Shown: in pieces, positions 17,777 to 51,165 of the stretch
Position numbering within the stretch: position 1 is the first letter of the stretch
How the letters are laid out: every line of letters begins with the position of its first letter
From: an uncultured virus (IMG/VR IMGVR_UViG_3300006735_000014)
Taxonomy: Duplodnaviria; Heunggongvirae; Uroviricota; Caudoviricetes
Virus record (IMG/VR): IMGVR_UViG_3300006735_000014
Direction: 5' to 3' (one strand)
Length of the DNA stretch: 64,000 nucleotides
Program-made: the position numbers and the translations under genes
Notes under the pieces: model-generated
Seen by the model: only the letters and a program-made list of their open reading frames with translations
What the model was told of the DNA's origin: nothing
Databases searched by the model: none

Positions 17777-18653
17777 GATAATACTTTTTATAACTTTCTT
17801 TTGCTATATTACTACAATATAAATAAAATTCTTCATCTTTCCTAAGCTTTTTGGCGATTTGTTTTGCTTTTGTTATATCACCCAATTCTATTGTACAATC
17901 AGGATGGAGTTTCATCTGTGTATCCAATCCATCATAACCTATACATGGAATGCCTAGATATGCACAATTTAATGCAAATGTTCCTGCTGCATGAGTTCTC
18001 ATTAAATGGACTCCGTATTTGAAATTATTTAATTTCTTTATCCATTCTACCCAAGTCATATACGGTAAATGATTTAGTCCTTCCATCCAATGTTCATTTT
18101 CAATCTTTCTACCCATACTTGGAGCATATATAGGACAATCAAATTCTTGTGCAGTTATATACGAATCAAATCCTCCATACCATTGACAAAAATTTCCTCC
18201 TATCATAACATTTGATCTATTTAATTTAGGAAACTTAATAGAATCCTCTATCATTAAACTTGGCATTACTTTACAATCTTTACCTGTTAATCCTTCAAAA
18301 TACTTTTTATCTATTTCATTATGAACAAAAAGAAAATCCATATCCATTAATGTATTGTAAAACCAAATTTGCTGTTCTAATGGATAATCCTGGAAATACC
18401 AATGTGGACCTTCTTGCATAGAAGCTACCTTTGAACACCACATCTTTATTTTTTCGAGATCAAATTGAGGATTCTTTTTAGGAATAATAATAATACCTAA
18501 ATCATACCTATCAGAATATTTTGGTAATTCTGCATTTATGTTATAATGGTCTGCATCTAATGCACACATCCATGCTAATTCTGTTCTCATGTTTTGATTA
18601 TCTCTAGAAACCTTACCTTGATAACCACCTTCTGTAAAAAATGCTATTTTCAT
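17727..18653 (-). CDS. Putative GT-B glycosyltransferase
   Basis: MKIAFF start; AAGTFALNCAYLGIPCIG resembles the GT4 C-terminal motif; glycan-locus context. Confidence 0.6.
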   Translation of the reverse strand: MKIAFFTEGGYQGKVSRDNQNMRTELAWMCALDADHYNINAELPKYSDRYDLGIIIIPKKNPQFDLEKIKMWCSKVASMQEGPHWYFQDYPLEQQIWFYNTLMDMDFLFVHNEIDKKYFEGLTGKDCKVMPSLMIEDSIKFPKLNRSNVMIGGNFCQWYGGFDSYITAQEFDCPIYAPSMGRKIENEHWMEGLNHLPYMTWVEWIKKLNNFKYGVHLMRTHAAGTFALNCAYLGIPCIGYDGLDTQMKLHPDCTIELGDITKAKQIAKKLRKDEEFYLYCSNIAKESYKKYYHENQFYSSIKEQLKIS

Positions 18654-19462
18654 TTATTAACTATTATATGTTTAACTATATTGATCATGTCATCTGCAGC
18701 TGCATCCGCGGCCGCTTGTACTTCCTCATGAGTTATTTTAACTATTCTTCCTTCTATACCCAAATCTGTAACTATTGACATTGAATATACTGGTAACCCC
18801 ATATGTTTTGCAACTAATACTTCTGGTACTGTTGACATACCTACTATATCAGCTCCAATAATTTTTAAAAATTTATATTCAGCTGGAGTTTCAAATGTTG
18901 GTCCTGCTAATGCAACATAAATTCCATCATGTATACGAATATTATTATTGGTTGCATATGTTCTTGCAAGATTGGCCATTTCATTATCATATACTTGACT
19001 CATATCAGGAAATCGTATTCCCATTTCATTATCATTAGGTCCTATCAATGGATTTGATCCCATTAGATTTATATGGTCTTCAATTATAACAATATCTCCA
19101 ATTTCATAATTTTCATTCATTGCGCCTACTGCATTCGATGTTATCAAATATTCAATTCCTAAATATTTTAATACTCTGATCGGAAATGTAATCTCTTGCA
19201 TTGAATGTCCTTCATAGAAATGATTACGGCCTTGCATAGCAACTACTGGGACATTTGATAAGTATCCGAATAATAAATTTCCTGCATGTCCTTCTATGGT
19301 TGCCTTTTTAAATCCTGGTATTGTATCGTAACTTATTGATGCTTTTATATCTATACTGTTGGCCATTTTACCTAAACCTGAACCTAATATAATTCCCGCC
19401 TTAGGATTAAAATCTATCTTTTCTTTAAGATATTCAGCTACTACTTTATAATCCTGCATCAT
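18650..19462 (-). CDS. punA: Purine nucleoside phosphorylase (trimeric PNP I family)
   Basis: GIILGSGLG, GHAG, MQGRxHFYEG, GPTFETPAE, VGMSTVPEV. Confidence 0.93.
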   Translation of the reverse strand: MMQDYKVVAEYLKEKIDFNPKAGIILGSGLGKMANSIDIKASISYDTIPGFKKATIEGHAGNLLFGYLSNVPVVAMQGRNHFYEGHSMQEITFPIRVLKYLGIEYLITSNAVGAMNENYEIGDIVIIEDHINLMGSNPLIGPNDNEMGIRFPDMSQVYDNEMANLARTYATNNNIRIHDGIYVALAGPTFETPAEYKFLKIIGADIVGMSTVPEVLVAKHMGLPVYSMSIVTDLGIEGRIVKITHEEVQAAADAAADDMINIVKHIIVNK

Positions 19463-33659: not shown

Positions 33660-33845
33660 TTAACCTTTCATCTTTTTAAAGATAAATTTATCAATTGGCC
33701 AAAATATTATTGCACCTACAAACTGGAATCCAATTACGGTTGCAAGATTTGACCATCCTAATATATCTGAAAATAGATACATACATGGCCATGATACGAT
33801 AATGCCTAATTGCCATTTAGCATGATATGTTAGATACTTCTTCAT
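33660..33845 (-). CDS. Small two-TM membrane protein
   Basis: 61 aa hydrophobic ORF overlapping the upstream stop. Confidence 0.55.
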   Translation of the reverse strand: MKKYLTYHAKWQLGIIVSWPCMYLFSDILGWSNLATVIGFQFVGAIIFWPIDKFIFKKMKG

Positions 33846-34252
33846 GTTATTATTGTTACTGGTTTACTTAATTTTTTTGCTTGTTTAATTGCACTTAAAC
33901 TTCCATTTGCATTATCTCCATTAGGAATGAATGCCATCATTACATCACAAGCTTTTGCTATCAATATATTTCTATGATGAAATTGTGATACATGATATGG
34001 TTTATTATAATAGTTATCAGACATAGCCGAATATAAATTTTTAGTTGTATGAGCTGGATTATATTCTTGATATTTTATTCCAAACTCTAATGAATACTTT
34101 CTTGCAAATTTATCAGCGCCATATTGAGCTCCTCCGGATAAAATAGTTAAATCATCTTTAAATTTTTGTTTAAGTTGAAATAACGCGTCTTTTATCTTAC
34201 GAGTATTCTCATAATGTCTACTACCTATTATCGCTACTTTCATCTTTTGCAT
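33842..34252 (-). CDS. SLOG superfamily (YspA/DUF2493-like) protein
   Basis: AIIGSR, ILSGGA.GADKFA, RNILI...CDVMMAF, KP. Confidence 0.75.
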   Translation of the reverse strand: MQKMKVAIIGSRHYENTRKIKDALFQLKQKFKDDLTILSGGAQYGADKFARKYSLEFGIKYQEYNPAHTTKNLYSAMSDNYYNKPYHVSQFHHRNILIAKACDVMMAFIPNGDNANGSLSAIKQAKKLSKPVTIIT

Positions 34253-36293: not shown

Positions 36294-37919
<1,626 letters not shown>

Positions 37920-38165
37920 CTATTTTGTTTTTGGTAAAAATTCTTTATTTATATGTCCACATTCATCACATCTATATACCGGGATCGGAATAATCTGTTC
38001 CTTTCCTGTTGGTGATACTAATGCGCCTATTTTTTTAAATGCATTAACTTGTCTAAAAAATTTACATCCACAATTTTCACAAACAAGATCTTTAAGATCG
38101 TTATAATCTAATTTTATTTGAGCTCCAGGTTGTTCCTTACCACCCATTCCTATTACTTTTGACAT
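37920..38165 (-). CDS. Small zinc-ribbon protein
   Basis: CENCG...CDECGH. Confidence 0.7.
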   Translation of the reverse strand: MSKVIGMGGKEQPGAQIKLDYNDLKDLVCENCGCKFFRQVNAFKKIGALVSPTGKEQIIPIPVYRCDECGHINKEFLPKTK

Positions 38166-38173
38166 TATTTCCC

Positions 38174-39103
38174 TTATTTAATTTCATTAATTATTTTAAT
38201 CATAGTCGACATAATATGAAGTTCTTTATCAACTGCAAATGCGTCTTGATATTGTGATTCTGCTAGAATTAAAATTACACTTGCGATATGACCTGTAGCA
38301 TAATTATCTACTTCATCAAATAAAAATTTATAAAGTGCAGTAAAATCTTTTACCTTACTATTATTAACTAGCTGACGAATGTCTTGAAAGCATGTTTTTT
38401 TATCTTCTGTTTTTTGTAAGATATCTAAAAGCTTAGTCATATAATTTGCTTGTACTAAACTTTCTTTATCTATTTGTAATTCACCAGCTATTACTTGTCT
38501 TTGAGCAGAATTTAACACTCTTCTAATATCTGGATATCCATTGTTTATTAATGTTACCAAATCATTCATTTCAAATTTAATACTCTGTTCCTTAAGTATT
38601 GTAACTATTCTTTTAGCTACTTCTTTTTTATTAGGAGGAGTAATTCCAAATACCTGACATCTAGATTGAATTGGATCAATTATCTTTTCAACATAATTAC
38701 ATGTTAAGATAAACCTAGTTGTTTTACTAAATGTCTCCATTAGATTCCTTAAGGCAGCTTGGCCATTTGGAGTCATATAATCTGCTTCATCTAATATTAC
38801 AATTTTCCATCTTTTGAATCCAATTGTACTTGCAAAGTTTTTTACTTTAGTTCTAACTGTTTCTACATTATTCTCATCTGATGCGTTTATATACATAATA
38901 TCTGCATCAACATTACCTGCAATAATCTTAGCTAAAGTTGTTTTACCTGTACCTGCGCCTCCATAAAATAATAAATGAGGAACATCACCATTTTCAAGAT
39001 ATAATTTTACTTTACTAATAATTAATTCATTACCAACATATCCATCTAATGTACTTGGACGAAACTTTTCTACCCAAAGTGTATTTTCTTGATTTCCAAA
39101 CAT
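38174..39103 (-). CDS. Clamp-loader AAA+ ATPase (RFC small subunit / T4 gp44-like)
   Basis: WVEKFRP, GGAGTGKT, INASDE, ILDEADY, ALRNLME, SRC. Confidence 0.95.
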   Translation of the reverse strand: MFGNQENTLWVEKFRPSTLDGYVGNELIISKVKLYLENGDVPHLLFYGGAGTGKTTLAKIIAGNVDADIMYINASDENNVETVRTKVKNFASTIGFKRWKIVILDEADYMTPNGQAALRNLMETFSKTTRFILTCNYVEKIIDPIQSRCQVFGITPPNKKEVAKRIVTILKEQSIKFEMNDLVTLINNGYPDIRRVLNSAQRQVIAGELQIDKESLVQANYMTKLLDILQKTEDKKTCFQDIRQLVNNSKVKDFTALYKFLFDEVDNYATGHIASVILILAESQYQDAFAVDKELHIMSTMIKIINEIK

Positions 39104-39104
39104 A

Positions 39105-39824
39105 TTAATTAGCTTGTAATTGTACTAGGTAATATGTAGATGAATAATCTTTACCTGTAAATGATACTCTTGCTAGTCCTGCACTTGATACTTCAATATA
39201 TCCTGTCTCTGCTTCTTTATTTGCAACTAATATTTCTTTAAATAAATTAGCTGAAAAACAAGTTGCTTTAAGATCGCTTTGTTCTCCTTCTGGAGTAGTT
39301 GGCCATGTAATTCTATTCGTATTCAAAGTTGAATAATTTAAAATCATATTAGTTCCTAATGCATCACTTTCAATTGCAAAGTTTTCTGTTTCAGGCAATG
39401 CATTTTTGGACTTAACAAATTTATCTGCAAAGTCTTTTGTTAATTTAATCTTAACATTAAAGTCAGGTAATTGTTTCATTGCCGGAACTTGTCTAATAAC
39501 TGATAAGTCTGCTAACATAAATGTTACATCAGTTGTTTTATCTGATAAGTTAATTGAAAATGCTGTACCATCTGCATTATTAATTCTCATAGTAACATCA
39601 TTGTCTAATGCAGTTAACAACTTGGTTAGCTGAGAAGTTGCATATACTCCTAATGTTACATCATCTACATCAAAATTATTCATTGATACAGATCCTACTA
39701 CGTTTTGATCATCTGTAATAAAATTACAGCTTAATGTTTTATCTTTGATATCCAATCTAACTGAATTTGCATTTCCTGCTAGATGATACTTATCAATAAA
39801 ACCTGTTAATTGTTTCTTTTCCAT
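39105..39824 (-). CDS. DNA sliding clamp (gp45/PCNA-like)
   Basis: 239 aa beta-rich two-domain pattern ending GLARVSF....STYYLV; directly upstream of the clamp loader. Confidence 0.75.
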   Translation of the reverse strand: MEKKQLTGFIDKYHLAGNANSVRLDIKDKTLSCNFITDDQNVVGSVSMNNFDVDDVTLGVYATSQLTKLLTALDNDVTMRINNADGTAFSINLSDKTTDVTFMLADLSVIRQVPAMKQLPDFNVKIKLTKDFADKFVKSKNALPETENFAIESDALGTNMILNYSTLNTNRITWPTTPEGEQSDLKATCFSANLFKEILVANKEAETGYIEVSSAGLARVSFTGKDYSSTYYLVQLQAN

Positions 39825-39838
39825 TGTTTACCTTTTTT

Positions 39839-41023
39839 TTATTCGAAAAATTGATTAAATACTTCATTGTTTACTAAATCTCTTGTACTACCTCCAAACC
39901 TATCATATAATTGTCTATTCTTATTATAGATATGAATAGCTTTATCCGGATCTTGGAACATTTCTTCCATACTCATTAGTATTGCATAGAAGTCTCTTGG
40001 AACTACTGTTTGTAATAGCTCGTTATGACATTTTACTATTTCTTCTACTTGCTTAACAGTTTCGTTAAATACAAATAAATTATTCAATGTCATTTTCATT
40101 GTTACATCACCTTTATAATTTGATACTTCGCCAAATGTCATTCCTTCAGATACTGGATGTCCTAATGGATTAGGAACTAAATCATCTGCGTTATAAGGAA
40201 GATTTTCTCCTTTTGGAAAATATAAATCAGTAAAGGTCATTTTACTTAATTGAGGTGAATGCAAATAAGTTCCATATACTGGATATAACCCAGGAGAACT
40301 TGAATCTGTTGATATTTGTATTCTACCTCCATGATACTTGTTTACCATCTTTTGAAAGAAGCTTAACATAAAGAAATCTGAAATTTTTGATATACCTAAT
40401 ACATGTATAAATTGATTTCTTGCTTTTTCAAATTCTCTATTCTTTATCATAGGAACTAATGCAGACATAAACATGGTTACTCTTTTTTGAGCACCTCCAA
40501 TACACCAACCATTAAATTCAAAGTCTTTCATTTTTTGATACCATGCTTCATATTCTTCAACATTGTTACCTTGAATAACATTTAAGAACTTACATTTACC
40601 AGATTGATTATCTGCAAAATATTTAAAGTTATCATAACTAATATCCATACATTCATGGAACTTACCATCATATTTTGCTCTTGGTGGAATATCTAAGTTA
40701 ACTCCTAAATCACAATTTGCTTCTAACCAATCAAATATAGTTTTCTTAAATGATGGATCCCATTTAATTGCTCCTGTAGCTAATTGGAATCCTCCTGAAT
40801 CACCTAATACTAGTACATCGTCTTCTAATCCATATCTTTGTCTTGCATCTGCCCATTTATAATGATGACCTGCTGTAATTAGAAAATAAGGATGTCTCCA
40901 TCTTTCAGGAAAATCTTTATCATAAAATCTACATGATAATCCTGGTTTAACTTCTTTATTCTTTTTAAAGTCTCCTGCACAACCTCCTGCAGACAATGAC
41001 GGATAATAAATTAAATCTTTCAT
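39839..41023 (-). CDS. dpdA: TGT-fold guanine transglycosylase, DpdA-like (candidate 7-deazaguanine DNA insertion enzyme)
   Basis: GDSGGFQ, NLDIPP, VIQG, CIGG, HVLG, TDSSS reproduce the TGT catalytic motifs; no tRNA-TGT CxCxxC zinc motif; folE/queD/queE nearby. Start set at MKDLIYY. Confidence 0.75.
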   Translation of the reverse strand: MKDLIYYPSLSAGGCAGDFKKNKEVKPGLSCRFYDKDFPERWRHPYFLITAGHHYKWADARQRYGLEDDVLVLGDSGGFQLATGAIKWDPSFKKTIFDWLEANCDLGVNLDIPPRAKYDGKFHECMDISYDNFKYFADNQSGKCKFLNVIQGNNVEEYEAWYQKMKDFEFNGWCIGGAQKRVTMFMSALVPMIKNREFEKARNQFIHVLGISKISDFFMLSFFQKMVNKYHGGRIQISTDSSSPGLYPVYGTYLHSPQLSKMTFTDLYFPKGENLPYNADDLVPNPLGHPVSEGMTFGEVSNYKGDVTMKMTLNNLFVFNETVKQVEEIVKCHNELLQTVVPRDFYAILMSMEEMFQDPDKAIHIYNKNRQLYDRFGGSTRDLVNNEVFNQFFE

Positions 41024-41024
41024 A

Positions 41025-42236
41025 TTAGTTTTCTTCTCCCCAAGCTTGTTCATACTGTTCTAAAATCTTTGCATCTACATCTTGTTGTAATAAAGATTCA
41101 CATAATTCTTTTTCATGCCATACACATAATTCATTCTCATAATCATTAGCAATAATATATCCTTCCATCTGTCTTCCTAGATCTGATGTATCAACTATAT
41201 GTGAATGTACTTTAGGTGTTTCTAATGCATCTTCAATTGTTTCTAATGCATCTTTTACATCAAATGGCTTATACATTCTATCTGCATCTATAAATTCTGG
41301 GAAGCTTCTAAAGTATGGAAATACTACATCAGCTCCAAAAGTAGTTGATTCAATAACAGTCCATGATACATAATCTTGTAATGCAGAATTAAATTGAATT
41401 TTACAAGTTGCTAATTCTGTATAATATTCTTCTTTTGTTAATCCAGTCATTAATTTAAATCTTGGTTGTTCTTCAGCTAGTTTTTCTAATGCATCAATTA
41501 CACCTGGTAACATTGATTTGAATTTTTTACCTGATGTAGTTACATGCCATTCATAATCTGGATGATTTTTTAAGAATGCTTCTGCAACTTTCATCATAAA
41601 GAAAGGATTCTTTTCCTTATCTAATCTAGATGAATATACAATTGTATTTTTCTTTTTATATTCACCAGCTGGAAGTTTTTCTAATGTTGCTTGTTTATGA
41701 ATTGGTAATGATACAACATGTATTGGAGCTTCAAATCCAGCTGCTCTTAATTGTTCTTTATGTATAGAACTTCCTACAAATATACCAGTTAATCTTTTAT
41801 CTAAACCTAATTCATATGGTCTCATCCAATTTCTCATAGGATATGTAAAATCATATTCATCAACTGATTGAGCATGACACATAGTATATACCTTTACATT
41901 CTTATATCCATACAGGTCTAATGCATACCAAATGGCTTCGACTCCTGGTGTCCAATAGTCTTGCAAGAATATTATATCACCGTCTTGGACTTTGTCATCA
42001 TACAGCATTTGTAAGAAGTTTTGGCATTGAGATAAACTATATTTTCCTCTACCAATTGCATCTAATACTGCACCAACTTTAATCTCACAATCAGGATCAA
42101 ATTCTCCTTCTACATCAATAAAATTTAATTTTTCATCATACCGTTCAAATGTAGCCGGCATCCATTCTTTACATAATTGATATGTATACCTTGCTTTTAA
42201 TGGCTCTAGGCCAAAGTAAAATAGATTTCTTTTCAT
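41025..42236 (-). CDS. GT-B (GT4-like) glycosyltransferase abutting the DpdA-like gene
   Basis: SSRLDKEKNP, QFNSALQDYVSWTVIESTTFG, SFPE. Confidence 0.75.
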   Translation of the reverse strand: MKRNLFYFGLEPLKARYTYQLCKEWMPATFERYDEKLNFIDVEGEFDPDCEIKVGAVLDAIGRGKYSLSQCQNFLQMLYDDKVQDGDIIFLQDYWTPGVEAIWYALDLYGYKNVKVYTMCHAQSVDEYDFTYPMRNWMRPYELGLDKRLTGIFVGSSIHKEQLRAAGFEAPIHVVSLPIHKQATLEKLPAGEYKKKNTIVYSSRLDKEKNPFFMMKVAEAFLKNHPDYEWHVTTSGKKFKSMLPGVIDALEKLAEEQPRFKLMTGLTKEEYYTELATCKIQFNSALQDYVSWTVIESTTFGADVVFPYFRSFPEFIDADRMYKPFDVKDALETIEDALETPKVHSHIVDTSDLGRQMEGYIIANDYENELCVWHEKELCESLLQQDVDAKILEQYEQAWGEEN

Positions 42237-42240
42237 ATTT

Positions 42241-42660
42241 TTATTCCTTTATTCTATCAAATTTATAATCATCTGGATTAATTTCCATTAAGTTACATTT
42301 CATTATCTGGTGTACTCTATACCAACCAGCATCTATAGATAATGTATCTGTCTTTTTTAATTTTGCGACATGTATATCTGGTATTCTATATATAACATGT
42401 GCTCTATTGAAAATAGACATTGGAATTTTCTCCATTGTCTTTTCATTAGCTTCTATTGTAACATATTGTTTAGTTTCTAGGATTCTATGTATTTCATCCC
42501 AATTACCATGAACACATGCCATTTCAATATATTCAATTGTAAAATAGATATGTGGATAATCTTTATAGTTTTTAGGTACTTGTCCTCTAACAAATACTGT
42601 TTCTATATCAGATAATCTACCTTCTACTTCTTTTCCATACCAATAACTTTTTCCGTACAT
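42241..42660 (-). CDS. Hypothetical protein heading the GT-DpdA unit
   Basis: 139 aa; WYGKEVEG...TVFVRG...HIYF; own promoter upstream. Confidence 0.7.
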   Translation of the reverse strand: MYGKSYWYGKEVEGRLSDIETVFVRGQVPKNYKDYPHIYFTIEYIEMACVHGNWDEIHRILETKQYVTIEANEKTMEKIPMSIFNRAHVIYRIPDIHVAKLKKTDTLSIDAGWYRVHQIMKCNLMEINPDDYKFDRIKE

Positions 42661-42677
42661 AACTTTTTTATTTTAAT

Positions 42678-42709
42678 TTAATATAGTAAATTTTTTGCAA
42701 ACAACCAAA
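42678..42709 (-). promoter_or_regulatory. Host-sigma-type promoter TTTG-N20-TATATTAA
   Basis: Intergenic, 20-nt spacer, upstream of 42660. Confidence 0.6.
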
Positions 42710-42716
42710 TCATTTA

Positions 42717-43064
42717 TTACTTATTTTTCAAAAAATCCTGGTTTGGATTAATTGTTTCATCTAATGTTTTTAATCTGCCTACTGTAAGTCGAATATCATT
42801 ATAAGTCTTATCAAATCTTCTATCTGTTGATGCTACCCATTTTTCAATTCGGTCTAAAGTATCTTTTTGCAAATCGTCTATTTGTCGACTTAAGTTTCTA
42901 TCGACATCTTCAATTAATCTATTAAGATTATCATGAAGATCAATCATTTCTAATTTTAATGTATCAAGCTCATCAGCTCTTCGGTTCAACCTAACCAAAT
43001 TAATACCTGCACCTAGTAAAGCCACAACCATTAATGTAATTAGCACTGTTAATAATGTTTCCAT
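42717..43064 (-). CDS. Membrane-anchored coiled-coil protein
   Basis: N-terminal TM helix followed by a heptad-like region. Confidence 0.6.
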   Translation of the reverse strand: METLLTVLITLMVVALLGAGINLVRLNRRADELDTLKLEMIDLHDNLNRLIEDVDRNLSRQIDDLQKDTLDRIEKWVASTDRRFDKTYNDIRLTVGRLKTLDETINPNQDFLKNK

Positions 43065-43084
43065 ATCTTATCTCCTATTTATTA

Positions 43085-45568
43085 TTAGCCGAATGCAAAA
43101 AATTTACCTAAATTATTATTCTCTGGGATTTTACCCCAATTCATTGCTCCATAGAAATCATTTAATTTGTTAGCAAATGCAGACGTAAATACTTTATTAT
43201 AGTTTATATTGTCTTGCACAAATTTTTCTATTGGAGGTGGATCTTCAAATCCTTTCATTGCTATTGTATCTAAGCCCATATTATTGGCCTTGAGATATGT
43301 CCATTTTATTTTTTCGCCATTAATGATTTCTCGAACATTTTTTACATTATGATGTTTTAACATATCATTATAATTCAATGCTGACTTAACATGTACTGGC
43401 GTTCCTTTCATTCTTACTGCAAATATTCCATCACCTTTACGTTGCCACTTCTTTACATTTTTAACACCAATTGGAAACATGACATCAATTAACGGTAATG
43501 TTTTCATGTACTCTTTAAAGTTTAGAATCTTTTCATCTAATTCTTCTTTTGAAATATCATTTAATATATCTTCTAGTACCTCAGCCATAAATTTTCTAAA
43601 GGCTGGTGGGAAGGAAGACCTTACAACATCTAATCCTTTGACATCTAGTTTAGATACTGTATGTCCTTCTATATTAATAATCCATTGAGCATATCTTTTC
43701 TTTGCAATCCATAAACCAGCTTTTGCAACATTTTCTTGCTTAATATCAAACTTATGAGTATTTACATTATGAAATTTATCAGCATATATATCATACGATC
43801 TATTTATAAAATCCTGTACTTCATCTGCAATTTCAATTGTTTTATCTGCCATCCATTTTTCATCTGTAATATCAAACTTTGGATACCTATGTTTTATAAT
43901 TGGTAATGATGAAAAGAATGTTGAATCTGTATCTGTATATATACAATAATCTTCTTTCTTATTTAATTCTCTTGTATAAAATTTATTTCCAATGTTTGCT
44001 GTAAATTTAATCAATTGTTGGCCTGTACTTGTAATGGCTACTGCATTATCAGGATCATTAAATCTAAATGTTGGATTACCTAATACTCCGTAAAATGAAT
44101 TAAGAAGAATTTTAGTTACTAATTGTAATCTATCAAAGTATTCAGCTTTTGCAGGATCACCTTCCTTTTCATACTTTTTTCTTAAGTTTTTATATTCAAC
44201 TCTTTCAGCAAACCATTTTTCAAGTATAGATGATATAAAACCTTTTTGATTTGTATCATATACAACGCCGTTAGCAGCAATAGAATATTTATTTTCTGTT
44301 AAATAAGATCTTAATTTTTCTGGTGATTCCCAACCATCATCACCCATTGAATATTCCATTGGAACATTTTTAATATATTTATGTCCATCAAAATCTTCAA
44401 CCTTTCCTATTTTAGTTTCTGGTGAAACGTTAAGTGTCATGATGATACTAGGATATAGAGATGTTAAATCAAGGTCATATACCCATTTATATCTACCTGG
44501 ATTTGGTGCCTTTACGAATGCTCCTAATAGATCTACTTGTTTTATCTCATCATGTCTAGGTTTGTTAGGTGCTACAATTCCTAATCGTTTCATATATGTT
44601 AATGCCGCACCATCTAAATATCTAGTCGGAAATAAAAAGTCTTCATATGGAACATGGCCTTTGTGACATATACCACGAGCTAAATCCATTAACTTCATTT
44701 TTTGATCTATCTCCCAAACCAAGTCAACATCATTCATATTGTAATCGATATAACCTTGAATGTCATTTTTTAATAAATCATCCAAAGTACCTTCATACTT
44801 CATTTTACCTTTACCCAATTCTTTTTGAGAGATAGCTTCTAACGAATAACTTGACTCTTCATTATAAGTAAAGTTTTTATATAATGCCATATAATCTAAG
44901 CATGATACTCCAGATATTCTATATCTATTTCTATGCTTTAACCAAATAACATCTTTAATAGGAGATAATGTTCTTGCTTGTTTTTCTCCTAATACATGAC
45001 ATATTCTATTATAAAGATATGGAATATCAAAAAAGTCAATATTCCAACCTGTAATTAAAGTAGGCATTATCTCGTAATATGTTATTAGAAATTTAGATAA
45101 TAATGAAGCTTCATCTGGACAAGATATTGTCTCAAAATTACCTTCTTTACGAGATGGCACCACTCCTTCTTTATCTAATATCCATACATATCTTTGATCA
45201 CCTGCTTCATCATAAATTGCAATAGAAGTTATTTCATTTTGAGCTTCTTCTGGAGTTGGAAATCCATTTTCAATATCAACTTCAATATCAATAAACAATG
45301 TTCTATGACCTGTAGATATTTCATCTGAATCTGTATACTGATCTATTAATGTCCTGATCTCAGGGTTAAGATCTGATTCATATAATCCAGGAGCTTCGGA
45401 ATCTGGGTTCCATACTTTATCTACACGAGTTCCATCTAATGTTGTTAATGCACCAGAAGGATTCTTTGCATATGCATATGGCTTATATTTTATTTTAAGA
45501 TGACCTTTAATATCATCCCATATATGTACTGTATTTGTACGTCGTTGATATGCTACTGCTTGATACAT
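43085..45568 (-). CDS. Family B DNA polymerase (T4 gp43-like)
   Basis: Exo DIE, GWN..FFDIPY, YN..D; pol DLTSLYPSII, KILLNSFYG, YTDTDS, KKRYA. Confidence 0.97.
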   Translation of the reverse strand: MYQAVAYQRRTNTVHIWDDIKGHLKIKYKPYAYAKNPSGALTTLDGTRVDKVWNPDSEAPGLYESDLNPEIRTLIDQYTDSDEISTGHRTLFIDIEVDIENGFPTPEEAQNEITSIAIYDEAGDQRYVWILDKEGVVPSRKEGNFETISCPDEASLLSKFLITYYEIMPTLITGWNIDFFDIPYLYNRICHVLGEKQARTLSPIKDVIWLKHRNRYRISGVSCLDYMALYKNFTYNEESSYSLEAISQKELGKGKMKYEGTLDDLLKNDIQGYIDYNMNDVDLVWEIDQKMKLMDLARGICHKGHVPYEDFLFPTRYLDGAALTYMKRLGIVAPNKPRHDEIKQVDLLGAFVKAPNPGRYKWVYDLDLTSLYPSIIMTLNVSPETKIGKVEDFDGHKYIKNVPMEYSMGDDGWESPEKLRSYLTENKYSIAANGVVYDTNQKGFISSILEKWFAERVEYKNLRKKYEKEGDPAKAEYFDRLQLVTKILLNSFYGVLGNPTFRFNDPDNAVAITSTGQQLIKFTANIGNKFYTRELNKKEDYCIYTDTDSTFFSSLPIIKHRYPKFDITDEKWMADKTIEIADEVQDFINRSYDIYADKFHNVNTHKFDIKQENVAKAGLWIAKKRYAQWIINIEGHTVSKLDVKGLDVVRSSFPPAFRKFMAEVLEDILNDISKEELDEKILNFKEYMKTLPLIDVMFPIGVKNVKKWQRKGDGIFAVRMKGTPVHVKSALNYNDMLKHHNVKNVREIINGEKIKWTYLKANNMGLDTIAMKGFEDPPPIEKFVQDNINYNKVFTSAFANKLNDFYGAMNWGKIPENNNLGKFFAFG

Positions 45569-45792
45569 TAAACTAATTCTTCTATTATTCCTACTATTTC
45601 ACTTAATATAAGGAAAATTACTGAGACTACCAAATTAAATGGTAGTAAAGCATATCCTATTATTCTAATTCCTGATTTGATAAAACTAATTATTTGGTGG
45701 TTTCTTGCATCAGGTAATTGTTGTTTAGTTTTAGATTTTTTTTTGCCTTTGGCTAATGTATCCATCCATAACCATTCTTTTCCTATATGCAT
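45568..45792 (-). CDS. Small membrane protein
   Basis: HQIISFIKSGIRI followed by a hydrophobic C-terminus. Confidence 0.55.
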   Translation of the reverse strand: MHIGKEWLWMDTLAKGKKKSKTKQQLPDARNHQIISFIKSGIRIIGYALLPFNLVVSVIFLILSEIVGIIEELV

Positions 45793-45793
45793 A

Positions 45794-46300
45794 CTAATTT
45801 ATTTTATAAATGTTTCTATAATTTCTTTTCAATGAATTATCATCTAATCCATAACCTACCACCCATTCTTTATCTATTTCAAAACAAAAATGATCTACTG
45901 GTGGACTATTTTCTTTACGTTTAAGTAATGTAACAATTTTAACATCGGTTGGCATCATATCATTAACTCTTAATAGTATTTCAAACATTGTGTTACCTGT
46001 ATCAACTATATCATCAATAATATAAACTCTTTTACCTTTGCAATGTATTTCTAATTCTTTTGTAAATTTAACTCCTTCTGAATTATCTTTACCTTTATAT
46101 GACTTAGGTCTAATAAAATCCATTTGTACATCAATACCCATATCTTTCATAAGATCTGCAAAAAATGCATAACCACCATTTAATACACAAATCATTACAG
46201 GTGGTAACAAATTACCAGAAGCTTTATGTTCTTCTGATATTTTATGAGCCATCGCTCTTACACGTCTTTCTATCTTAAATTCTGGTATTAATATCTCCAT
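45794..46300 (-). CDS. hpt: Hypoxanthine/guanine phosphoribosyltransferase
   Basis: CVLNGG..FFADL, KSY, IIDDIVDTGNT PRPP loop, WVVGYGLD...RN. Confidence 0.9.
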   Translation of the reverse strand: MEILIPEFKIERRVRAMAHKISEEHKASGNLLPPVMICVLNGGYAFFADLMKDMGIDVQMDFIRPKSYKGKDNSEGVKFTKELEIHCKGKRVYIIDDIVDTGNTMFEILLRVNDMMPTDVKIVTLLKRKENSPPVDHFCFEIDKEWVVGYGLDDNSLKRNYRNIYKIN

Positions 46301-46962
46301 TAATTATAACCTTTTATAAATTCATAATATTCATTTCTTGTAGCAGGATCATCTTTGAACGCACCAGTTAATTTACTTGTCTTCATACTTGCACCACCAT
46401 GTTTAACTCCTCTACATTGTACACAATTATGAGTTGCATCAATCATAACTGCTACACCATTATTATCTTCAATAATTGAATTTACCGCATGATGAATTGC
46501 AACTGTCAATTGTTCTTGAATTGCACCTCTTCTACCAAAATGTTCTACTAATCTATTCAATTTAGATAATCCAATCACATGACTATCTTTACCTGGAATA
46601 TACGCAACATGTACAACTCCCATAATAGTTTGATGATGATGTGAACACATGCTTGTCAATGGAATACCTCCTTCAAATACAATACCATCATATCCATCAC
46701 TAGGAAATGTTGTTATTGCAGGAGGAGCTTCATATCTACCTGCCCATAAGTCTCTCACATATGCTTTAGCTACTCGATATGGAGTTTTATTTGAATTTGG
46801 ATCATCTCGCCAATCTACTTTCAATGCATCCAAAAACATTCCAAATGCATGAGCTGCATCTGTTATCATTGCTTGTTTTTCTTCTTCTGTTAAAGGTCGG
46901 CCGTCTGCTGCTCCGTTTGCATAACCTGACTTTACTAGTTCTATATTTAATTTTTCTTTCAT
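46300..46962 (-). CDS. folE: GTP cyclohydrolase I
   Basis: TPYRVAK, SMCSHH, IGLSKLNR, IQEQLT, ATHNCVQCRGV. Confidence 0.96.
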   Translation of the reverse strand: MKEKLNIELVKSGYANGAADGRPLTEEEKQAMITDAAHAFGMFLDALKVDWRDDPNSNKTPYRVAKAYVRDLWAGRYEAPPAITTFPSDGYDGIVFEGGIPLTSMCSHHHQTIMGVVHVAYIPGKDSHVIGLSKLNRLVEHFGRRGAIQEQLTVAIHHAVNSIIEDNNGVAVMIDATHNCVQCRGVKHGGASMKTSKLTGAFKDDPATRNEYYEFIKGYN

Positions 46963-47258
46963 ATTGATTTCATTGCTATTTCTGATTCTCTAACTAATAC
47001 ATACTTATTTCCATCTAATGTAACTTCATTACCATTTTTGCCTGATAAAAATCTTACTGGTAATAATACTGTATCTCCTTTTTTACATGACATTTCAATT
47101 AAATCTCCAGTCATTGTACGAACACCTACACCTGTAGCTATTACTTCAGCTTTTCCATATGTAGATGAATTAGCAGATAATATTAATCCATGTTCTGATT
47201 TTGTTTCTTCTTTTATTGGCTTTAACAATAATTGATCTCCTATAGGTTTCATTTTCAT
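46959..47258 (-). CDS. groES: Co-chaperonin GroES
   Basis: MKPIGDQLLLK, GLIL mobile loop, VIATGVG, KKGDTVL, YVLVRESEI. Confidence 0.9.
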   Translation of the reverse strand: MKMKPIGDQLLLKPIKEETKSEHGLILSANSSTYGKAEVIATGVGVRTMTGDLIEMSCKKGDTVLLPVRFLSGKNGNEVTLDGNKYVLVRESEIAMKSI

Positions 47259-47271
47259 AATTTCTCCTTTT

Positions 47272-48045
47272 TTATACCATTCGTTGTGTATTATATGCTA
47301 TGATATGATCTCTTCCTGTCATATTATAACCATGCTCTGCTACCATTTCAAATACTATTGGATACATTTTAATTAATTGTTCTCTAGTATCTCCGGCTGG
47401 CATTACATATGTCTTTCCTTTTGGAATATTTAATTCAACTCTTAATTCCTCAATTTCTTTTAAATTTTCTTCTGTTCCATCCCATACTGGCTTATAATGA
47501 TAATCATCATGAAATCTCATCATCATTTTTATTGCTTCTGTATTTTTTCTTAATCTATTATGAACTTTTATCATTCGTTCATCTACTATTTTTCCGGCTG
47601 GTGTTTTTTCTCCTAATTTAGGAATACTATTTGAAAACTTAGGACTAATAGATAATAAGTCTATTGGATAATCAGTATTAACAAAATGACTACCTTCTGT
47701 TTCTATAGTAACTATTATTTGTCTCTCATGAGCAAAATGAGTTATTTCATTAATTAATGCTGGATGCATTGTTGGTGATCCACCTGTTAACATCATTTCT
47801 TTTATTTGTGGATTTTCGTCATATATTTTGACTATATCATTAAAACAAAATGTACCTTTTTCTGGATGAATACTAGTATACCAACTATCACACCAACCAC
47901 CTTCTCCAAAGAAACATCTATGAGTACAACCTGTTGTTCTAACAGCAATTGTAGGACGACCAAACCTACTTCCTTCGGATTGGACACATCTATATACCTC
48001 TAATATAGGTAAAACTTTATTATAATCTTCTATTCTTTTATTCAC
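47272..48045 (-). CDS. queE: 7-carboxy-7-deazaguanine synthase (radical SAM)
   Basis: VQSEG...G.P...VRTTGCTHRC...WCDSWYT, LTGGSP, IETEG, SISPK. Confidence 0.93.
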   Translation of the reverse strand: MNKRIEDYNKVLPILEVYRCVQSEGSRFGRPTIAVRTTGCTHRCFFGEGGWCDSWYTSIHPEKGTFCFNDIVKIYDENPQIKEMMLTGGSPTMHPALINEITHFAHERQIIVTIETEGSHFVNTDYPIDLLSISPKFSNSIPKLGEKTPAGKIVDERMIKVHNRLRKNTEAIKMMMRFHDDYHYKPVWDGTEENLKEIEELRVELNIPKGKTYVMPAGDTREQLIKMYPIVFEMVAEHGYNMTGRDHIIAYNTQRMV

Positions 48046-48526
48046 TATATATCGATGAATTACGGTCGGCTTCCCAACATTCTACTTTAACTACTTTTAC
48101 TCTACCACCACCAGTCTTGGACATTACATCATTAAACTTATCATATACTAATTTGGCACATGATTCAGCTCCCATTTTATCCATTACTACTAGTTTAGCT
48201 ATTCCTTCCATTGCTGCACCTTGGAAGAAATCTAAATAAGGATCATCTTTCTCAATTAATAATGTATGGTCCCACATACTATTCATCCAATCCTTTAATC
48301 CATTTCCTGGGGTTGGTTCTGCGTCTTGAGATTTAAATCCTCCATAATCCATAATCCAATTCATTTCATCTAATTGATCACCTTCCATTGGCTCTACAGA
48401 TTCAAACCATACTTTAAATTTTAAAGCATATCCATGTAATAATTCACAATGAGAATGAGCTGCTTTCCATTGTCTTAATGCTACTGAATAATTATCGAAT
48501 ACTTTAGTTGATTGATACTTTCCCAT
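48038..48526 (-). CDS. queD: 6-carboxy-5,6,7,8-tetrahydropterin synthase
   Basis: HCELLHGY, WIMDYG, WDHT, GAE, VECWE..RNS. Confidence 0.9.
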   Translation of the reverse strand: MGKYQSTKVFDNYSVALRQWKAAHSHCELLHGYALKFKVWFESVEPMEGDQLDEMNWIMDYGGFKSQDAEPTPGNGLKDWMNSMWDHTLLIEKDDPYLDFFQGAAMEGIAKLVVMDKMGAESCAKLVYDKFNDVMSKTGGGRVKVVKVECWEADRNSSIYSE

Positions 48527-48546
48527 CTTCTATCTCCTTTATTAAT

Positions 48547-48578
48547 TTAATATAAGAAAAACTTTTCATAAATCCTAA
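48547..48578 (-). promoter_or_regulatory. Host-sigma-type promoter TTAG-N20-TATATTAA upstream of queD
   Basis: 20-nt spacer; heads the queD-queE-groES-folE-hpt-polB run. Confidence 0.6.
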
Positions 48579-48904
48579 GCTTTTCCTGAATAACTCCAAA
48601 CTAACCAATACTTTCTTCCTCGAGGATGATTATATAATAAATGTGATGACATCATACTCGAATGATAAAACTCAGAAGCATATTGATCAGCTGAATCTTT
48701 GTTATTAAACAATACAAAATCATCTGCCTTTGGATATGATTGGTCAAATGACATACCTGTATCTTTATATGATTTTGCATATATTGTATCATTTACCATT
48801 GAAGTAAGATATTCTTTATCTCTCCAACTTACTCGATTCCAGTCAAATCCTTGACAAATTTGTTCTACTTTTGCTTGTGATTGTTTTGAATTTTTATAAC
48901 CCAT
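48575..48904 (-). CDS. Hypothetical protein
   Basis: 109 aa ORF on the coding strand. Confidence 0.55.
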   Translation of the reverse strand: MGYKNSKQSQAKVEQICQGFDWNRVSWRDKEYLTSMVNDTIYAKSYKDTGMSFDQSYPKADDFVLFNNKDSADQYASEFYHSSMMSSHLLYNHPRGRKYWLVWSYSGKA

Positions 48905-48932
48905 TTTTTTTATTTTTATTTAATATAATAAC

Positions 48933-49190
48933 TTATTTGCAACTTTCCAAATCTTTTACAACTTTTGTTAGATTTTTTATAGCAATACTTATATCATTGT
49001 TAGACATAGAATTCCATGCTTCTAATGCTCCTGCTTTTTTAGCAAATTGCATATCATGATCTTCATCACTATGGTCTTTTTCTAACTTTTTAATATCATT
49101 GAAATCTACTCTAAACTGTAACTGTTTAATTACATGTTCTAACTCTAATCTTGCAGAATATAATTCTGACTGTAACTGCGCTTTTGTCAT
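48933..49190 (-). CDS. Hypothetical protein
   Basis: 85 aa ORF directly downstream of the repeated promoter element. Confidence 0.55.
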   Translation of the reverse strand: MTKAQLQSELYSARLELEHVIKQLQFRVDFNDIKKLEKDHSDEDHDMQFAKKAGALEAWNSMSNNDISIAIKNLTKVVKDLESCK

Positions 49191-49210
49191 ATTTTTTACT
49201 TTTTATTTAT

Positions 49211-49263
49211 ATATAAAGATAAGAAAAATATTTCAAAGTACCAAATCTTTTGGCAGCTTTTTT
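49211..49263 (-). repeat. Second copy of the 53-bp promoter element (48/53 identical to 5368-5420)
   Basis: atataaagataagaaaaa-N11-accaaatcttttggcagctttttt on the plus strand at both sites. Confidence 0.8.
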
Positions 49264-49308
49264 ACAATTAAATTGGAAATCCGTAATATAATTTTTCAAT
49301 CCAGCCCA

Positions 49309-51165
49309 TTATACTATCTCACATGCTCCACCAGCACAAGCTAATTCACCTTTAAGATCTGTTTCATCTTCTTCTTCAACAATGTTTGATAAATCTACTT
49401 TTGATAATGATCCCATCATTCGTTCATATGTTTCTTCATCTATATCTTCAAATGGAGCTTGTGTATATGTTCCTCCGTTATATGGTAATACTGATAAACC
49501 ATTATAATGTTCTTTGTTATCCCACATCCACTCACCAGCTGCATCCCATTCATGATCTCTTAATGAAATTGTTGCAGATACATTATGAGTGTTTGAACCA
49601 GCTCTATGTCCTGGTTTGATCCATTCCATTGCAACCTTTTTAACTCTTTCTAATAATTGGAATGGAGATTCTGTTCTCATAATTGCACCTTCAGGAGCTT
49701 TTTGTGGTACTGATATTACAGCTGTATCATGTGGTCTGAAGTATTCATCTTCTACTAGTTCTGGATGATGTTCCATTAAATAATTATATATTGATTCATT
49801 CTTACCTACACGTATTCTTCTAATATAATAATCATTATGCCATGCATGTATACCAGATGATGTTCCTAATGTTAACGAAGTAGTTCCAGCTGGTTTGACT
49901 GTTGTTGATCTTGCGGTTTTATTTATTCCAATTAGTTTTGCAACTCTTGCATTTTCTTCTCTAACAATTTTAGCTGCAGATTTCATATCATATCCTAAAA
50001 CAGTACCAGAACCTATACCTGTCATTGATACACCAATAAGTGCATCCTTTTCAGTTGTTCTTTGCCATACTGGTCTTAAATAATGGAATGCAGTATATCC
50101 TGCTTGAAGTGTTCCTATAAATGAAGCAACTTTAACTCTATTATTAAAATCTTCTTGTGATTCTATATTTGAAACATTTACTTCACAAAGATTACAAAAC
50201 TGGAAAGGTCTTAAGGCAATTTCACAACAAGGATTAGTACCCCAATCTTTATCATTTGATAAATATATTCCTGGTTCTCCGGCCCCACTTTTTTCAACTC
50301 TATCCCAAATATTCATAAAGAACTCTTTGGTAATTTTATGTCTCATAAGAACTGCAGAATTATTTGCTCTACCTCTTTGTGGATTCAATTCCCACCAATT
50401 ACCAGATTTACAAGCAATCATTTCATCATCATGAGCACTAAATAAACTAATTAAAGCAGCCCTTCTAATACCTCCGGCTAAGACTGCATCAGCAATATGA
50501 CAAACAATATCATGAACTTCTAATGTTGATAATTTTTCACCATCTGATTTTTCTTTCAACAATCCTTCAATCTTAACCAAACACTCTTTTAATGGTTGTG
50601 GTCCTGGAGCTTTACCACCTGAAGTAACTAATCTAGCTCCTTTTGGTCTAATGTCTGTATAATCAAATTGTAATTTAGAACCTCCTTGAAAATATGATTT
50701 CATTAATATTTTTACTGCATCTGCCCATCCTTCAATAGAATCGGCAATTAAATATCTTCGTGATCTTTTTGGATTAGGTTTTCTTATTTCTGGTAATTGT
50801 TCTACATGATGTTGTTGGACTGAATAACCTACACCTGTTCCACCTAGTAATAAAAACATTGTTTCTGAAAAAGCTCTCCAATCATCTATTGGAAGGTATG
50901 CACAATTATAAACTCTATTAGGACTTATTTCAATTGGTTTACCTGCAAATTGCATACTCCTCATAGATGGAAGTACTTTCTTATCCTTTACTAATTTATA
51001 TGCCTGCATGATTTCATCTTTCAAGTCAGGATATGTTTTAAGATGCATTGCACGATTTCTGTCAACTAATTCTCTCCATGTTTCTCTCCTATTCTTATTA
51101 GGTAAGAACTTTGCGTACTTCATGTATACTGTAATCTCTGATAGTATTTTTGTAGATATGTCCAT
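49309..51165 (-). CDS. nrdJ: Class II (adenosylcobalamin-dependent) ribonucleotide reductase
   Basis: LPSMR, YNCAY, GGTGVG, TNPCCEI, FCNLCE, VKPAGT, C-terminal ACAGGACE; no beta-subunit gene adjacent. Confidence 0.92.
   Translation of the reverse strand: MDISTKILSEITVYMKYAKFLPNKNRRETWRELVDRNRAMHLKTYPDLKDEIMQAYKLVKDKKVLPSMRSMQFAGKPIEISPNRVYNCAYLPIDDWRAFSETMFLLLGGTGVGYSVQQHHVEQLPEIRKPNPKRSRRYLIADSIEGWADAVKILMKSYFQGGSKLQFDYTDIRPKGARLVTSGGKAPGPQPLKECLVKIEGLLKEKSDGEKLSTLEVHDIVCHIADAVLAGGIRRAALISLFSAHDDEMIACKSGNWWELNPQRGRANNSAVLMRHKITKEFFMNIWDRVEKSGAGEPGIYLSNDKDWGTNPCCEIALRPFQFCNLCEVNVSNIESQEDFNNRVKVASFIGTLQAGYTAFHYLRPVWQRTTEKDALIGVSMTGIGSGTVLGYDMKSAAKIVREENARVAKLIGINKTARSTTVKPAGTTSLTLGTSSGIHAWHNDYYIRRIRVGKNESIYNYLMEHHPELVEDEYFRPHDTAVISVPQKAPEGAIMRTESPFQLLERVKKVAMEWIKPGHRAGSNTHNVSATISLRDHEWDAAGEWMWDNKEHYNGLSVLPYNGGTYTQAPFEDIDEETYERMMGSLSKVDLSNIVEEEDETDLKGELACAGGACEIV

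Follow-up and report, generated by a model that had tools for sequence, protein, structure and literature searches.

A 64,000-nucleotide stretch of DNA (hereafter the window) from an uncultured aquatic virus of the class Caudoviricetes (IMG/VR record IMGVR_UViG_3300006735_000014) carries, among its replication genes, a cluster that is predicted to replace guanine (G) in the phage DNA by a 7-deazaguanine. Such replacement lets phages escape restriction and CRISPR. As judged from the genes of the window and of its relatives, the cluster belongs to the known type of system that dispenses with QueC and uses the T-fold protein DpdL. It contains two further genes, one for a GT4-like glycosyltransferase (GT) and one for a protein of 139 amino acids (aa) that is associated with DpdL, and these two constitute a conserved add-on that is not in print. 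The GT gene lies next to the gene of the presumed inserting enzyme, a protein with the fold of the tRNA-guanine transglycosylases (TGTs) that resembles phage DpdA enzymes. The GT most likely places a sugar on the deazapurine, a reading to which we assign a probability of about 0.5.

A QueC-less pathway of the DpdL type

In an initial annotation, made from the sequence of the window, the cluster was proposed to be a candidate new pathway in which FolE, QueD and QueE make 7-carboxy-7-deazaguanine (CDG) from GTP, with no queC, queF or gat-queC in the window. The absence of these genes was borne out by family searches. No open reading frame (ORF) of the window matches the QueC or QueF family, and the two AsnB-like glutamine amidotransferases that it encodes (20692-22032 and 25116-26444, both on the - strand) were ruled out as Gat-QueC, since neither gives a QueC signal at E ≤ 1. 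Both of these sit beside a UDP-sugar dehydrogenase in a sugar-biosynthesis island and probably amidate uronic acids.

The possibility that queC lies elsewhere in the genome was checked in five related records (three 100% complete, two with terminal repeats). QueC scored above its cut-off in none of the five, and neither did QueF, for which the weak matches fall inside folE. DpdL was found in all five with a profile (E 5e-37 to 8e-18), and its motif is present. Three of these records (G003, G004 and G005) have the order family B DNA polymerase (PolB), 139-aa gene, DpdL, GT, DpdA, clamp.

Excerpts from Hutinet et al. (2023; PMC10516641) describe phages that have FolE, QueD, QueE, DpdA and DpdL but lack QueC. 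DpdL is presented there as a T-fold protein with an LxxxHRHxF motif and is proposed to be the decarboxylase that converts CDG to 7-deazaguanine (DG; dDG as the DNA nucleoside). The DNA of phage phiST was reported to contain 100% dDG with only FolE, QueD, QueE, DpdL and DpdA3 (PMC10516641). Because DpdL occurs in all five related records, we take the window system to be of this DpdL type, i.e., a QueC-less replacement of G by a deazaguanine, and not a new pathway. The QueC-less route seen in the initial annotation is therefore present, but its novelty does not hold, as it corresponds to a published system (PMC10516641). The presence of DpdL in all relatives also makes it more likely that the base handed on is 7-deazaguanine than CDG.

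Within the 64-kb window DpdL is absent (tblastn, motif search and hidden Markov model (HMM) search). The closest relative, G002 (127 kb), has a TGT that is 97% identical to that of the window; it carries DpdL at 9516-9842 and homologues of the left-end genes of the window at 17.9-19.8 kb. By synteny with G002, DpdL of the window phage is thus expected about 8 kb beyond the left end of the window. The DpdL region of G002 and the window have nothing in common by tblastx at E ≤ 1e-5. Extension of the left end with a 36-base pattern gave no viral contig and one 3-kb metagenome contig that adds about 330 bases. The nearest related record, G001, is a 33-kb fragment whose TGT gene is identical to that of the window. 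It is estimated to represent 20% of a genome, from which we estimate a full phage genome of about 160 kb, the 64-kb window being part of it.

The TGT-fold protein as a DpdA-type transglycosylase

Taken alone, the TGT-fold protein matches none of the families in Pfam and finds nothing in a sequence search of the PDB. In NCBIfam only weak matches to DpdA and ArcTGT families were obtained (E about 6e-4), and with the bacterial DpdA family NF041059 it reaches 18.7 bits against a cut-off of 200. Among 1987 candidates scored, however, 513 are relatives at E ≤ 0.001, and PF01702 is present in many of the 120 listed. An AlphaFold2 (AF2) model based on 32 sequences (pLDDT 86, pTM 0.88) gave 199 Foldseek matches at E ≤ 0.001, and the 49 listed are all tRNA-guanine transglycosylases. 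They include ArcTGT 1j2b (E 4e-10, probability 1.00), the archaeosine and queuine TGTs being found at E 4e-10 to 2e-7 with a probability of 1.00.

The motifs GDSGGFQ, NLDIPP and TDSSSP, with D85, D121 and D250, are recognizable, and the three aspartates are invariant in the 32 sequences. We take them to be equivalent to D102, D156 and D280 of the Z. mobilis TGT, the general-acid, base-binding and nucleophile Asp. The zinc-binding cysteine motif CxxxCxxC is kept in 17 of the 32 sequences and is gone from the window protein and 14 others. Around residues 290-305 the window protein reads VPNPLGHPVSEG where relatives with the zinc motif have VPCSLDCPAC.

The best match of the window TGT in a cultured phage is protein QCG76197 of PA5oct (26% identity, E 2e-15), which sheet DS1 of PMC10516641 lists as DpdA3, with QCG76199 as DpdL. 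The HMM of the window TGT family also takes in the DpdA2s of phages ACP17, BUDD and BCSR5; no match was obtained with the DpdA3s of phiST, RHph_I1_18 and Ahp1 (names as in DS1). The description of the protein as DpdA-like in the initial annotation is thus supported by its TGT fold, evident from homologues with PF01702 and from the AF2 model and its Foldseek matches, and by PA5oct DpdA3 as the nearest named relative. From sequence and model, we assign it as a DpdA-type transglycosylase. DNA, and not tRNA, is its predicted target, which is favoured by the position of the gene between PolB and the sliding clamp and by a PolB-like C-terminal tail.

A glycosyltransferase that accompanies DpdA and DpdL

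A profile of the GT family, searched against the PDB, identified GT4 structures (AmGGT 8xsg at E 7.4e-8, 6eji, 2f9f and 4xyw; PglH, WbaZ and WbnH). In an alignment of 40 sequences, position 288 is D in 20 and E in 19, E296 is found in all 40, R204 in 38 and K209 in 36. We take position 288 and E296 to form the E-x7-E motif of GT4 enzymes, and R204 with K209 to be the diphosphate-binding pair. The N-terminal half contains a further set of nearly invariant residues (E11, R16, Y17, T18, D87, D93, W95, D129, W137, E142 and H159). The protein looks like an enzyme that has kept the donor-binding and catalytic motifs and has a family-specific acceptor site.

Relatives of the window TGT were found in at least 582 IMG/VR stretches, and the best 80 loci were kept. 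HMM scoring covered 79 loci (L003-L081), leaving out L001 and L002, which are identical to the window. The GT gene immediately precedes the TGT gene (gap ≤500 nt) in 58 of these 79 loci and is found elsewhere in the locus, 1.4-7.5 kb off, in 11. Three loci have no GT with at least 1 kb of upstream sequence present, and seven are uninformative, which leaves direct adjacency in 58 of 72 informative loci. Where the GT is adjacent and at least 3 kb of upstream sequence is available (42 loci), DpdL lies within 3.5 kb in 34 cases and the 139-aa gene in 36.

Cultured phages have the same genes in other arrangements. The order is 132-aa protein, DpdA2, GT, DpdL, QueE in ACP17; 143-aa protein, GT, DpdA2, DpdL, QueE in BUDD; and 155-aa protein, GT, DpdA2 in BCSR5. 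In BUCT-ZZ01 it is FolE, a 447-aa weakly GT-like protein, a DpdA2-like protein, DpdL and GT, whereas PA5oct has DpdA3, GT, DpdL, and in Phosso DpdL adjoins the GT. The link of GT and dpdA that had been noted in the window is thus strongly conserved through rearranged orders and in unrelated cultured phages. The cultured phages, with their rearranged genes, provide independent support for a link between the GT and the pathway.

A GT profile to which none of these phages contributed detects exactly one strong copy each in PA5oct, ACP17, BUDD, BCSR5 and BUCT-ZZ01 (E 9e-105 to 4e-61). Five other phages that encode DpdL (phiST, RHph_I1_18, Ahp1, Bakedbeans and D479) have no GT by this profile anywhere in their records. 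With the TGT-family HMM, the TGTs of all five GT-bearing phages were recovered, and nothing was recovered from the examined loci of the five GT-free ones. By these two profiles in ten phages, the GT is associated with a single long TGT clade, within clusters of the DpdL type. A complex prediction with the GT and the TGT-fold protein, both supplied as alignments, scored 0.00 and, having been run without controls, speaks neither way.

Two other GT-like proteins were encountered. The 447-aa protein of the cyanophage BUCT-ZZ01 (L084, 4007-5350), encoded between FolE and DpdA, is a second, weakly GT-like protein with E 3e-6 to the GT HMM. Xanthomonas phage PhiXhv-15 has a distant GT relative together with GlmS and a BshB-like deacetylase (L100, 3654-6888), a group that looks like a separate amino-sugar module. 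A TGT-like protein of 568 aa is encoded 90 kb from this GT relative, with no FolE, QueD or QueE adjoining.

The 139-aa protein is tied to DpdL

The 139-aa protein belongs to an unnamed family. A profile search of 1.84 billion representatives yielded 255 clusters at E ≤ 0.001, nearly all with proteins of 130-170 aa. Among 150 listed representatives, three (264, 268 and 371 aa) carry a DpdL domain at the N-terminus (E 3e-17 to 5e-19), and a further one is a fragment of such a DpdL::139-aa protein. The three natural fusions, with DpdL as the N-terminal and the 139-aa family as the C-terminal part, are P0185, P0188 and P0239. These fusions tie the 139-aa family to DpdL and suggest that the two proteins act as one enzyme.

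A broader profile of the family also finds the small proteins encoded beside the GT or DpdA in BCSR5 (E 3.5e-18), BUDD (5.4e-12) and ACP17 (2.4e-8), as well as an ORF elsewhere in the PA5oct genome (9.7e-8). With hhalign, the match between the family and the small proteins of BCSR5, BUDD and ACP17 is weak (E 0.0083, probability 4.8%); the relation is settled by the broader profile.

The invariant residues of the 139-aa protein are mostly charged (E11, E13, R15, D18, H37, E70, H88, K102 and D105). Its AF2 model is a small alpha/beta domain (pLDDT 80.7), for which Foldseek found nothing in the PDB below E 0.04. The matches obtained with VIA-align are weak, the best being STAS with Z 6.1, followed by QueE structures with Z 5.8 (over 115 residues), 5.3 and 5.1. 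Naming the fold from these matches was rejected, as Z values of at most 6.1 are too weak. An hhalign comparison with a QueE alignment gave a short match at the N-terminal QueE motif (E 0.038 over 21 columns), and the radical SAM cysteine triad of QueE is absent from the 139-aa sequence. A distant descent from QueE is possible. In the ESM Atlas the protein matches unnamed viral clusters only.

Comparison with known systems

Cellulophaga phage phiST resembles the window in having FolE, QueD and QueE but no QueC, and in encoding the T-fold protein DpdL and a TGT-family transglycosylase by its polymerase genes. Unlike the window, it encodes no GT of this family anywhere in its record, no member of the 139-aa family was found, and its DpdA3, of 259 aa, goes unmatched by the window TGT-family HMM. 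In the Pseudomonas jumbo phage PA5oct, on the other hand, the protein encoded between DpdA3 and DpdL, QCG76198, is a member of this GT family (E 9.2e-105 with the profile that leaves PA5oct out). PA5oct differs from the window in the order DpdA3-GT-DpdL and in the length of its DpdA3, which has 540 aa with extra segments. Excerpts from PMC12191111 report that PA5oct DNA is resistant to five restriction enzymes, with a pattern indicative of modified G, and that this modified G is sensed by END nucleases.

Acidovorax phage ACP17, Xanthomonas phage BUDD and Burkholderia phage BCSR5 have, like the window, the small protein, the GT and DpdA together by DpdL, FolE and QueE. In contrast to the window, their TGTs are filed as DpdA2 (PMC10516641, sheet DS1), and they are only about 24% identical to the window TGT. 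Expression of dpdL and dpdA of ACP17 in E. coli gave no dDG, and it was noted that other enzymes may be required (PMC10516641). The word glycosyltransferase occurs 0 times in the main text of that article.

As to enzymes that add sugars to nucleic acid bases, no relation of the window GT to T4-type glucosyltransferases was seen, the PDB profile search having listed only GT4 enzymes. The alpha- and beta-glucosyltransferases of T4 are GT-B enzymes that transfer a sugar onto 5-hydroxymethylcytosine in DNA after replication. They serve as a working analogy, although the acceptor in that case is a hydroxymethyl group on a pyrimidine. The eukaryotic mannosyl-queuosine synthase QTMAN/GTDC1, a GT4 enzyme, transfers a sugar to a derivative of 7-deazaguanine in tRNA. 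Its acceptor is the cyclopentenediol of queuosine, whereas the window is without queuosine-forming genes. A literature search, with poor coverage of subscription journals, turned up no account of a deazaguanine with an attached sugar in DNA.

A PolB-like tail on DpdA

The C-termini of PolB and of the TGT-fold protein (sequences in Table 1) have a common xxFFxF-type tail. In diverged loci the paired tails change together, e.g., KKINSLFKF occurs with KKINNLFKF and KMDGLFW with KMDALFD. The mean tail similarity is 20.09 within the same genome vs 17.35 between different genomes (34 distinct pairs), and 0 of 10000 permutations reached the observed value, in a test that is inflated by the relatedness of the loci. 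Clamp binding by such C-terminal tails is known from T4 and RB69. The PolB-like tail on DpdA fits action at the replication fork, and by its sequence DpdA probably carries a clamp tether. If real, a clamp-docking tail would account for the complete replacement achieved by some DpdA types.

Proposed mechanism and alternatives

By homology, FolE, QueD and QueE convert GTP to CDG, and the DpdA-type transglycosylase would swap the modified base into DNA. DpdL and the 139-aa protein would act on the free base, and DpdA, docked on the sliding clamp by its PolB-like tail, would work on freshly made DNA. The GT4-like enzyme would put a sugar on the deazapurine, either before or after insertion, giving a glycosyl-7-deazaguanine where phiST has plain dDG. 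In one possible route, DpdL with the 139-aa protein strips the carboxyl group from CDG, which would leave the electron-rich C7 free. The GT would then attach the sugar at C7, or at the carboxyl group in lineages where DpdL acts otherwise, and the clamp-tethered DpdA would install the sugared base behind the fork. This route agrees with the restriction of the GT to DpdL-type clusters. That the GT-bearing phages, including the window phage, replace G with a sugar-bearing 7-deazaguanine in their virion DNA is a further step, which we propose tentatively.

Several observations weigh against sugar addition. The adduct, although plausible, is a prediction from gene content. Neither 7-deazaguanine nor CDG has an ordinary hydroxyl acceptor, and the only options are a carboxyl ester, a C-glycoside or an N-glycoside. 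phiST, which has no such GT, attains full replacement by dDG, so that insertion in that phage does not require one. The related loci, being the best 80 of at least 582, are kin, so the synteny counts do not represent independent events, and the distant GT relatives in PhiXhv-type phages are found with GlmS and a deacetylase, away from deazaguanine genes. For the window phage, DpdL is placed by synteny, with none inside the window, and its decarboxylase activity is a prediction. Finally, the tail score of the PolB/TGT pair of the window is 10, which is not above the scores of the tails of other proteins (up to 11).

The most serious alternative, which is possible though we doubt it, is that the DNA ends up with a plain deazaguanine of a known kind (dDG, or dCDG without DpdL) and that no sugar enters it. 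The GT-like and 139-aa proteins would then be helpers of the long DpdA clade or of DpdL, acting in loading, base delivery or as a scaffold, as DpdB does for bacterial DpdA. This would agree with the 100% dDG obtained in phiST with FolE, QueD, QueE, DpdL and DpdA3 only (PMC10516641). It would also agree with the absence of a hydroxyl group on DG, with the confinement of the GT to one TGT clade, as for an obligate partner, and with the fusion of the 139-aa protein to DpdL, which suggests a role in making the base rather than in tailoring it. A pure scaffold, however, has no need for the [D/E]x7E, R204 and K209 positions, which the GT keeps over 40 diverged sequences.

It is also conceivable that the GT is active on a different target, such as a DNA base other than the deazapurine, a protein of the replisome or the virion, or a molecule of the host envelope, and that its adjacency to dpdA reflects shared expression timing. 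GT4 acceptors are very diverse, the window contains a separate, large sugar island that encodes further GTs and nucleotide-sugar enzymes, and the distant relatives in PhiXhv-type phages have no deazaguanine genes nearby. Yet the adjacency to DpdA or DpdL survives rearrangement (GT-DpdA in the window, DpdA-GT-DpdL in PA5oct and ACP17, DpdL-GT in BUCT-ZZ01 and Phosso) and holds over hosts from cyanobacteria to Pseudomonas, which makes another target improbable. For a pyrimidine base as target, no hydroxymethylase was found in the 64-kb window, the clusters of the cultured phages having been read from their deposited annotation only. We give still less credit to an entry of the deazapurine before replication, in which Hpt would form the nucleotide, reduction and phosphorylation would follow and PolB would incorporate the product, the TGT-fold protein acting on tRNA or being vestigial. 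The position of hpt between folE and PolB, the purine phosphoribosyltransferase inside the BUCT-ZZ01 cluster and the class II-like ribonucleotide reductase gene just upstream would suit such a scheme. But only 11 of 23 suitable related loci have an hpt homologue, whereas the family is defined by the TGT gene; the catalytic Asp residues of the TGT are invariant and its tail resembles that of PolB. In addition, every virus with 7-deazaguanine in its DNA had a DpdA, and post-replicative insertion has been argued (Hutinet et al., 2023; PMC10516641, in excerpt). Entry before replication thus appears very improbable.

If the GT does add a sugar to the deazapurine, the product would be the first glycosylated purine in any natural DNA and a new class of DNA base. 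Two new enzyme activities would be involved, a deazapurine glycosyltransferase and a partner of DpdL. Sugar addition could also explain the failed experiment with dpdL and dpdA of ACP17 (PMC10516641) and the modified G of PA5oct (PMC12191111). The TGT module is abundant in aquatic viromes, as indicated by the number of IMG/VR stretches given above, and occurs in cultured phages as well.

Gene layout and neighbouring genes

The window is AT-rich (GC about 0.30), and every kept ORF lies on the - strand, bar five short ORFs on the + strand (50-81 aa, without a known family). It contains a T4-like replication module with a gp32-like protein, RecA/UvsX, a DnaB-like helicase, PolB, clamp and clamp loader. 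Other genes encode GroEL, GroES and the class II-like ribonucleotide reductase, and the sugar-biosynthesis island spans about 20 kb. The closest PolB from a cultured phage is that of Microcystis phage Mel-JY01 (43% identity).

Table 1. Genes of the deazaguanine cluster and adjoining features, with positions in the window and supporting family matches
Feature	Position	Strand	Evidence and remarks
QueD (6-carboxytetrahydropterin synthase), phage type	48038..48526	-	PF01242 E 2.9e-10; phrog_2389 QueD-like E 3.3e-33
QueE (7-carboxy-7-deazaguanine synthase, radical SAM)	47272..48045	-	phrog_2076 E 5e-49; TIGR03365 E 4.5e-16, under cut-off
GroES (Cpn10), between queE and folE	46959..47258	-	PF00166 E 1.3e-16; not counted in pathway
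FolE (GTP cyclohydrolase I)	46300..46962	-	PF01227 E 5.1e-45; phrog_2197 E 1.7e-59
Hpt (hypoxanthine-guanine phosphoribosyltransferase)	45794..46300	-	TIGR01203 E 1.3e-40, 138.9 bits vs cut-off 150
74-aa ORF between hpt and PolB	45568..45792	-	
Family B DNA polymerase (PolB), C-terminal tail ...NNNLGKFFAFG	43085..45568	-	PF00136 E 3.2e-36; PF03104 E 3.4e-20
115-aa membrane/coiled-coil ORF between PolB and 139-aa gene	42717..43064	-	No family match
139-aa protein, unnamed family	42241..42660	-	No Pfam, PHROG or NCBIfam match
GT4-like (GT-B) glycosyltransferase	41025..42236	-	PF00534 (Glycos_transf_1) E 6.2e-5, 23.0 bits vs cut-off 26.4
DpdA-type TGT-fold protein (assigned from sequence and model), C-terminal tail ...NNEVFNQFFE	39839..41053	-	Likely start 41023
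Sliding clamp (gp45-like)	39105..39824	-	NF002222 weak match, E 0.0047; between TGT gene and clamp loader in most related loci
Clamp loader large subunit (AAA+)	38174..39103	-	PF00004 E 3.9e-19; PF13177 E 1e-12
Purine nucleoside phosphorylase, within sugar island	18650..19462	-	NF006054 E 1.7e-105, 352 bits vs cut-off 218

Gene identities and gene order agree with the initial annotation (Table 1), in which, however, GroES, the 74-aa ORF and the 115-aa ORF had been overlooked. Gaps of 1-14 nt, described there for the genes from the 139-aa protein to the clamp loader, are obtained with a start of the TGT gene at the 11th codon (41023), the point at which the homologues begin; the gap between the 139-aa gene and the GT gene is 4 nt. 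A separate promoter before the 139-aa gene, as had been assumed, was not recovered. The only space for it is a 56-nt AT-rich gap (42661-42716), in which a consensus scan lists no site, and promoter-like sites in the region 38000-49400 are not enriched by that scan (67 vs 77.3 in shuffled sequences, sd 9.6). The 115-aa ORF has a homologue in only 2 of 81 related loci, L002, which is identical to the window, and L026; it is a variable insert and does not share the conservation of the module. The translated QueD contains a CxxxHGY motif, which is also present in QueD of ACP17.

The salvage genes of the window include hpt, of which the product is a near-canonical hypoxanthine-guanine phosphoribosyltransferase by NCBIfam. 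The count of hpt homologues given above (11 of 23) refers to related loci with at least 4.5 kb of sequence upstream of PolB. Hpt and the purine nucleoside phosphorylase would together give the phage a two-step route for guanine salvage. We infer that Hpt, and perhaps the phosphorylase, return guanine to GTP, including guanine that is freed by the base swap; a link of the phosphorylase to the deazaguanine module is conjectural.

GroEL is encoded at 36294-37910 on the - strand, 9 kb from GroES, and GroES keeps its slot between queE and folE in many related loci. Besides PolB, the window encodes a 448-aa family A polymerase-like protein (57888-59234, - strand). A SLOG/DprA-like protein of 136 aa (33842-34252, - strand) adjoins a second GT-B protein (32149-33606, - strand), which has a weak match to "GT4 in conflict systems".

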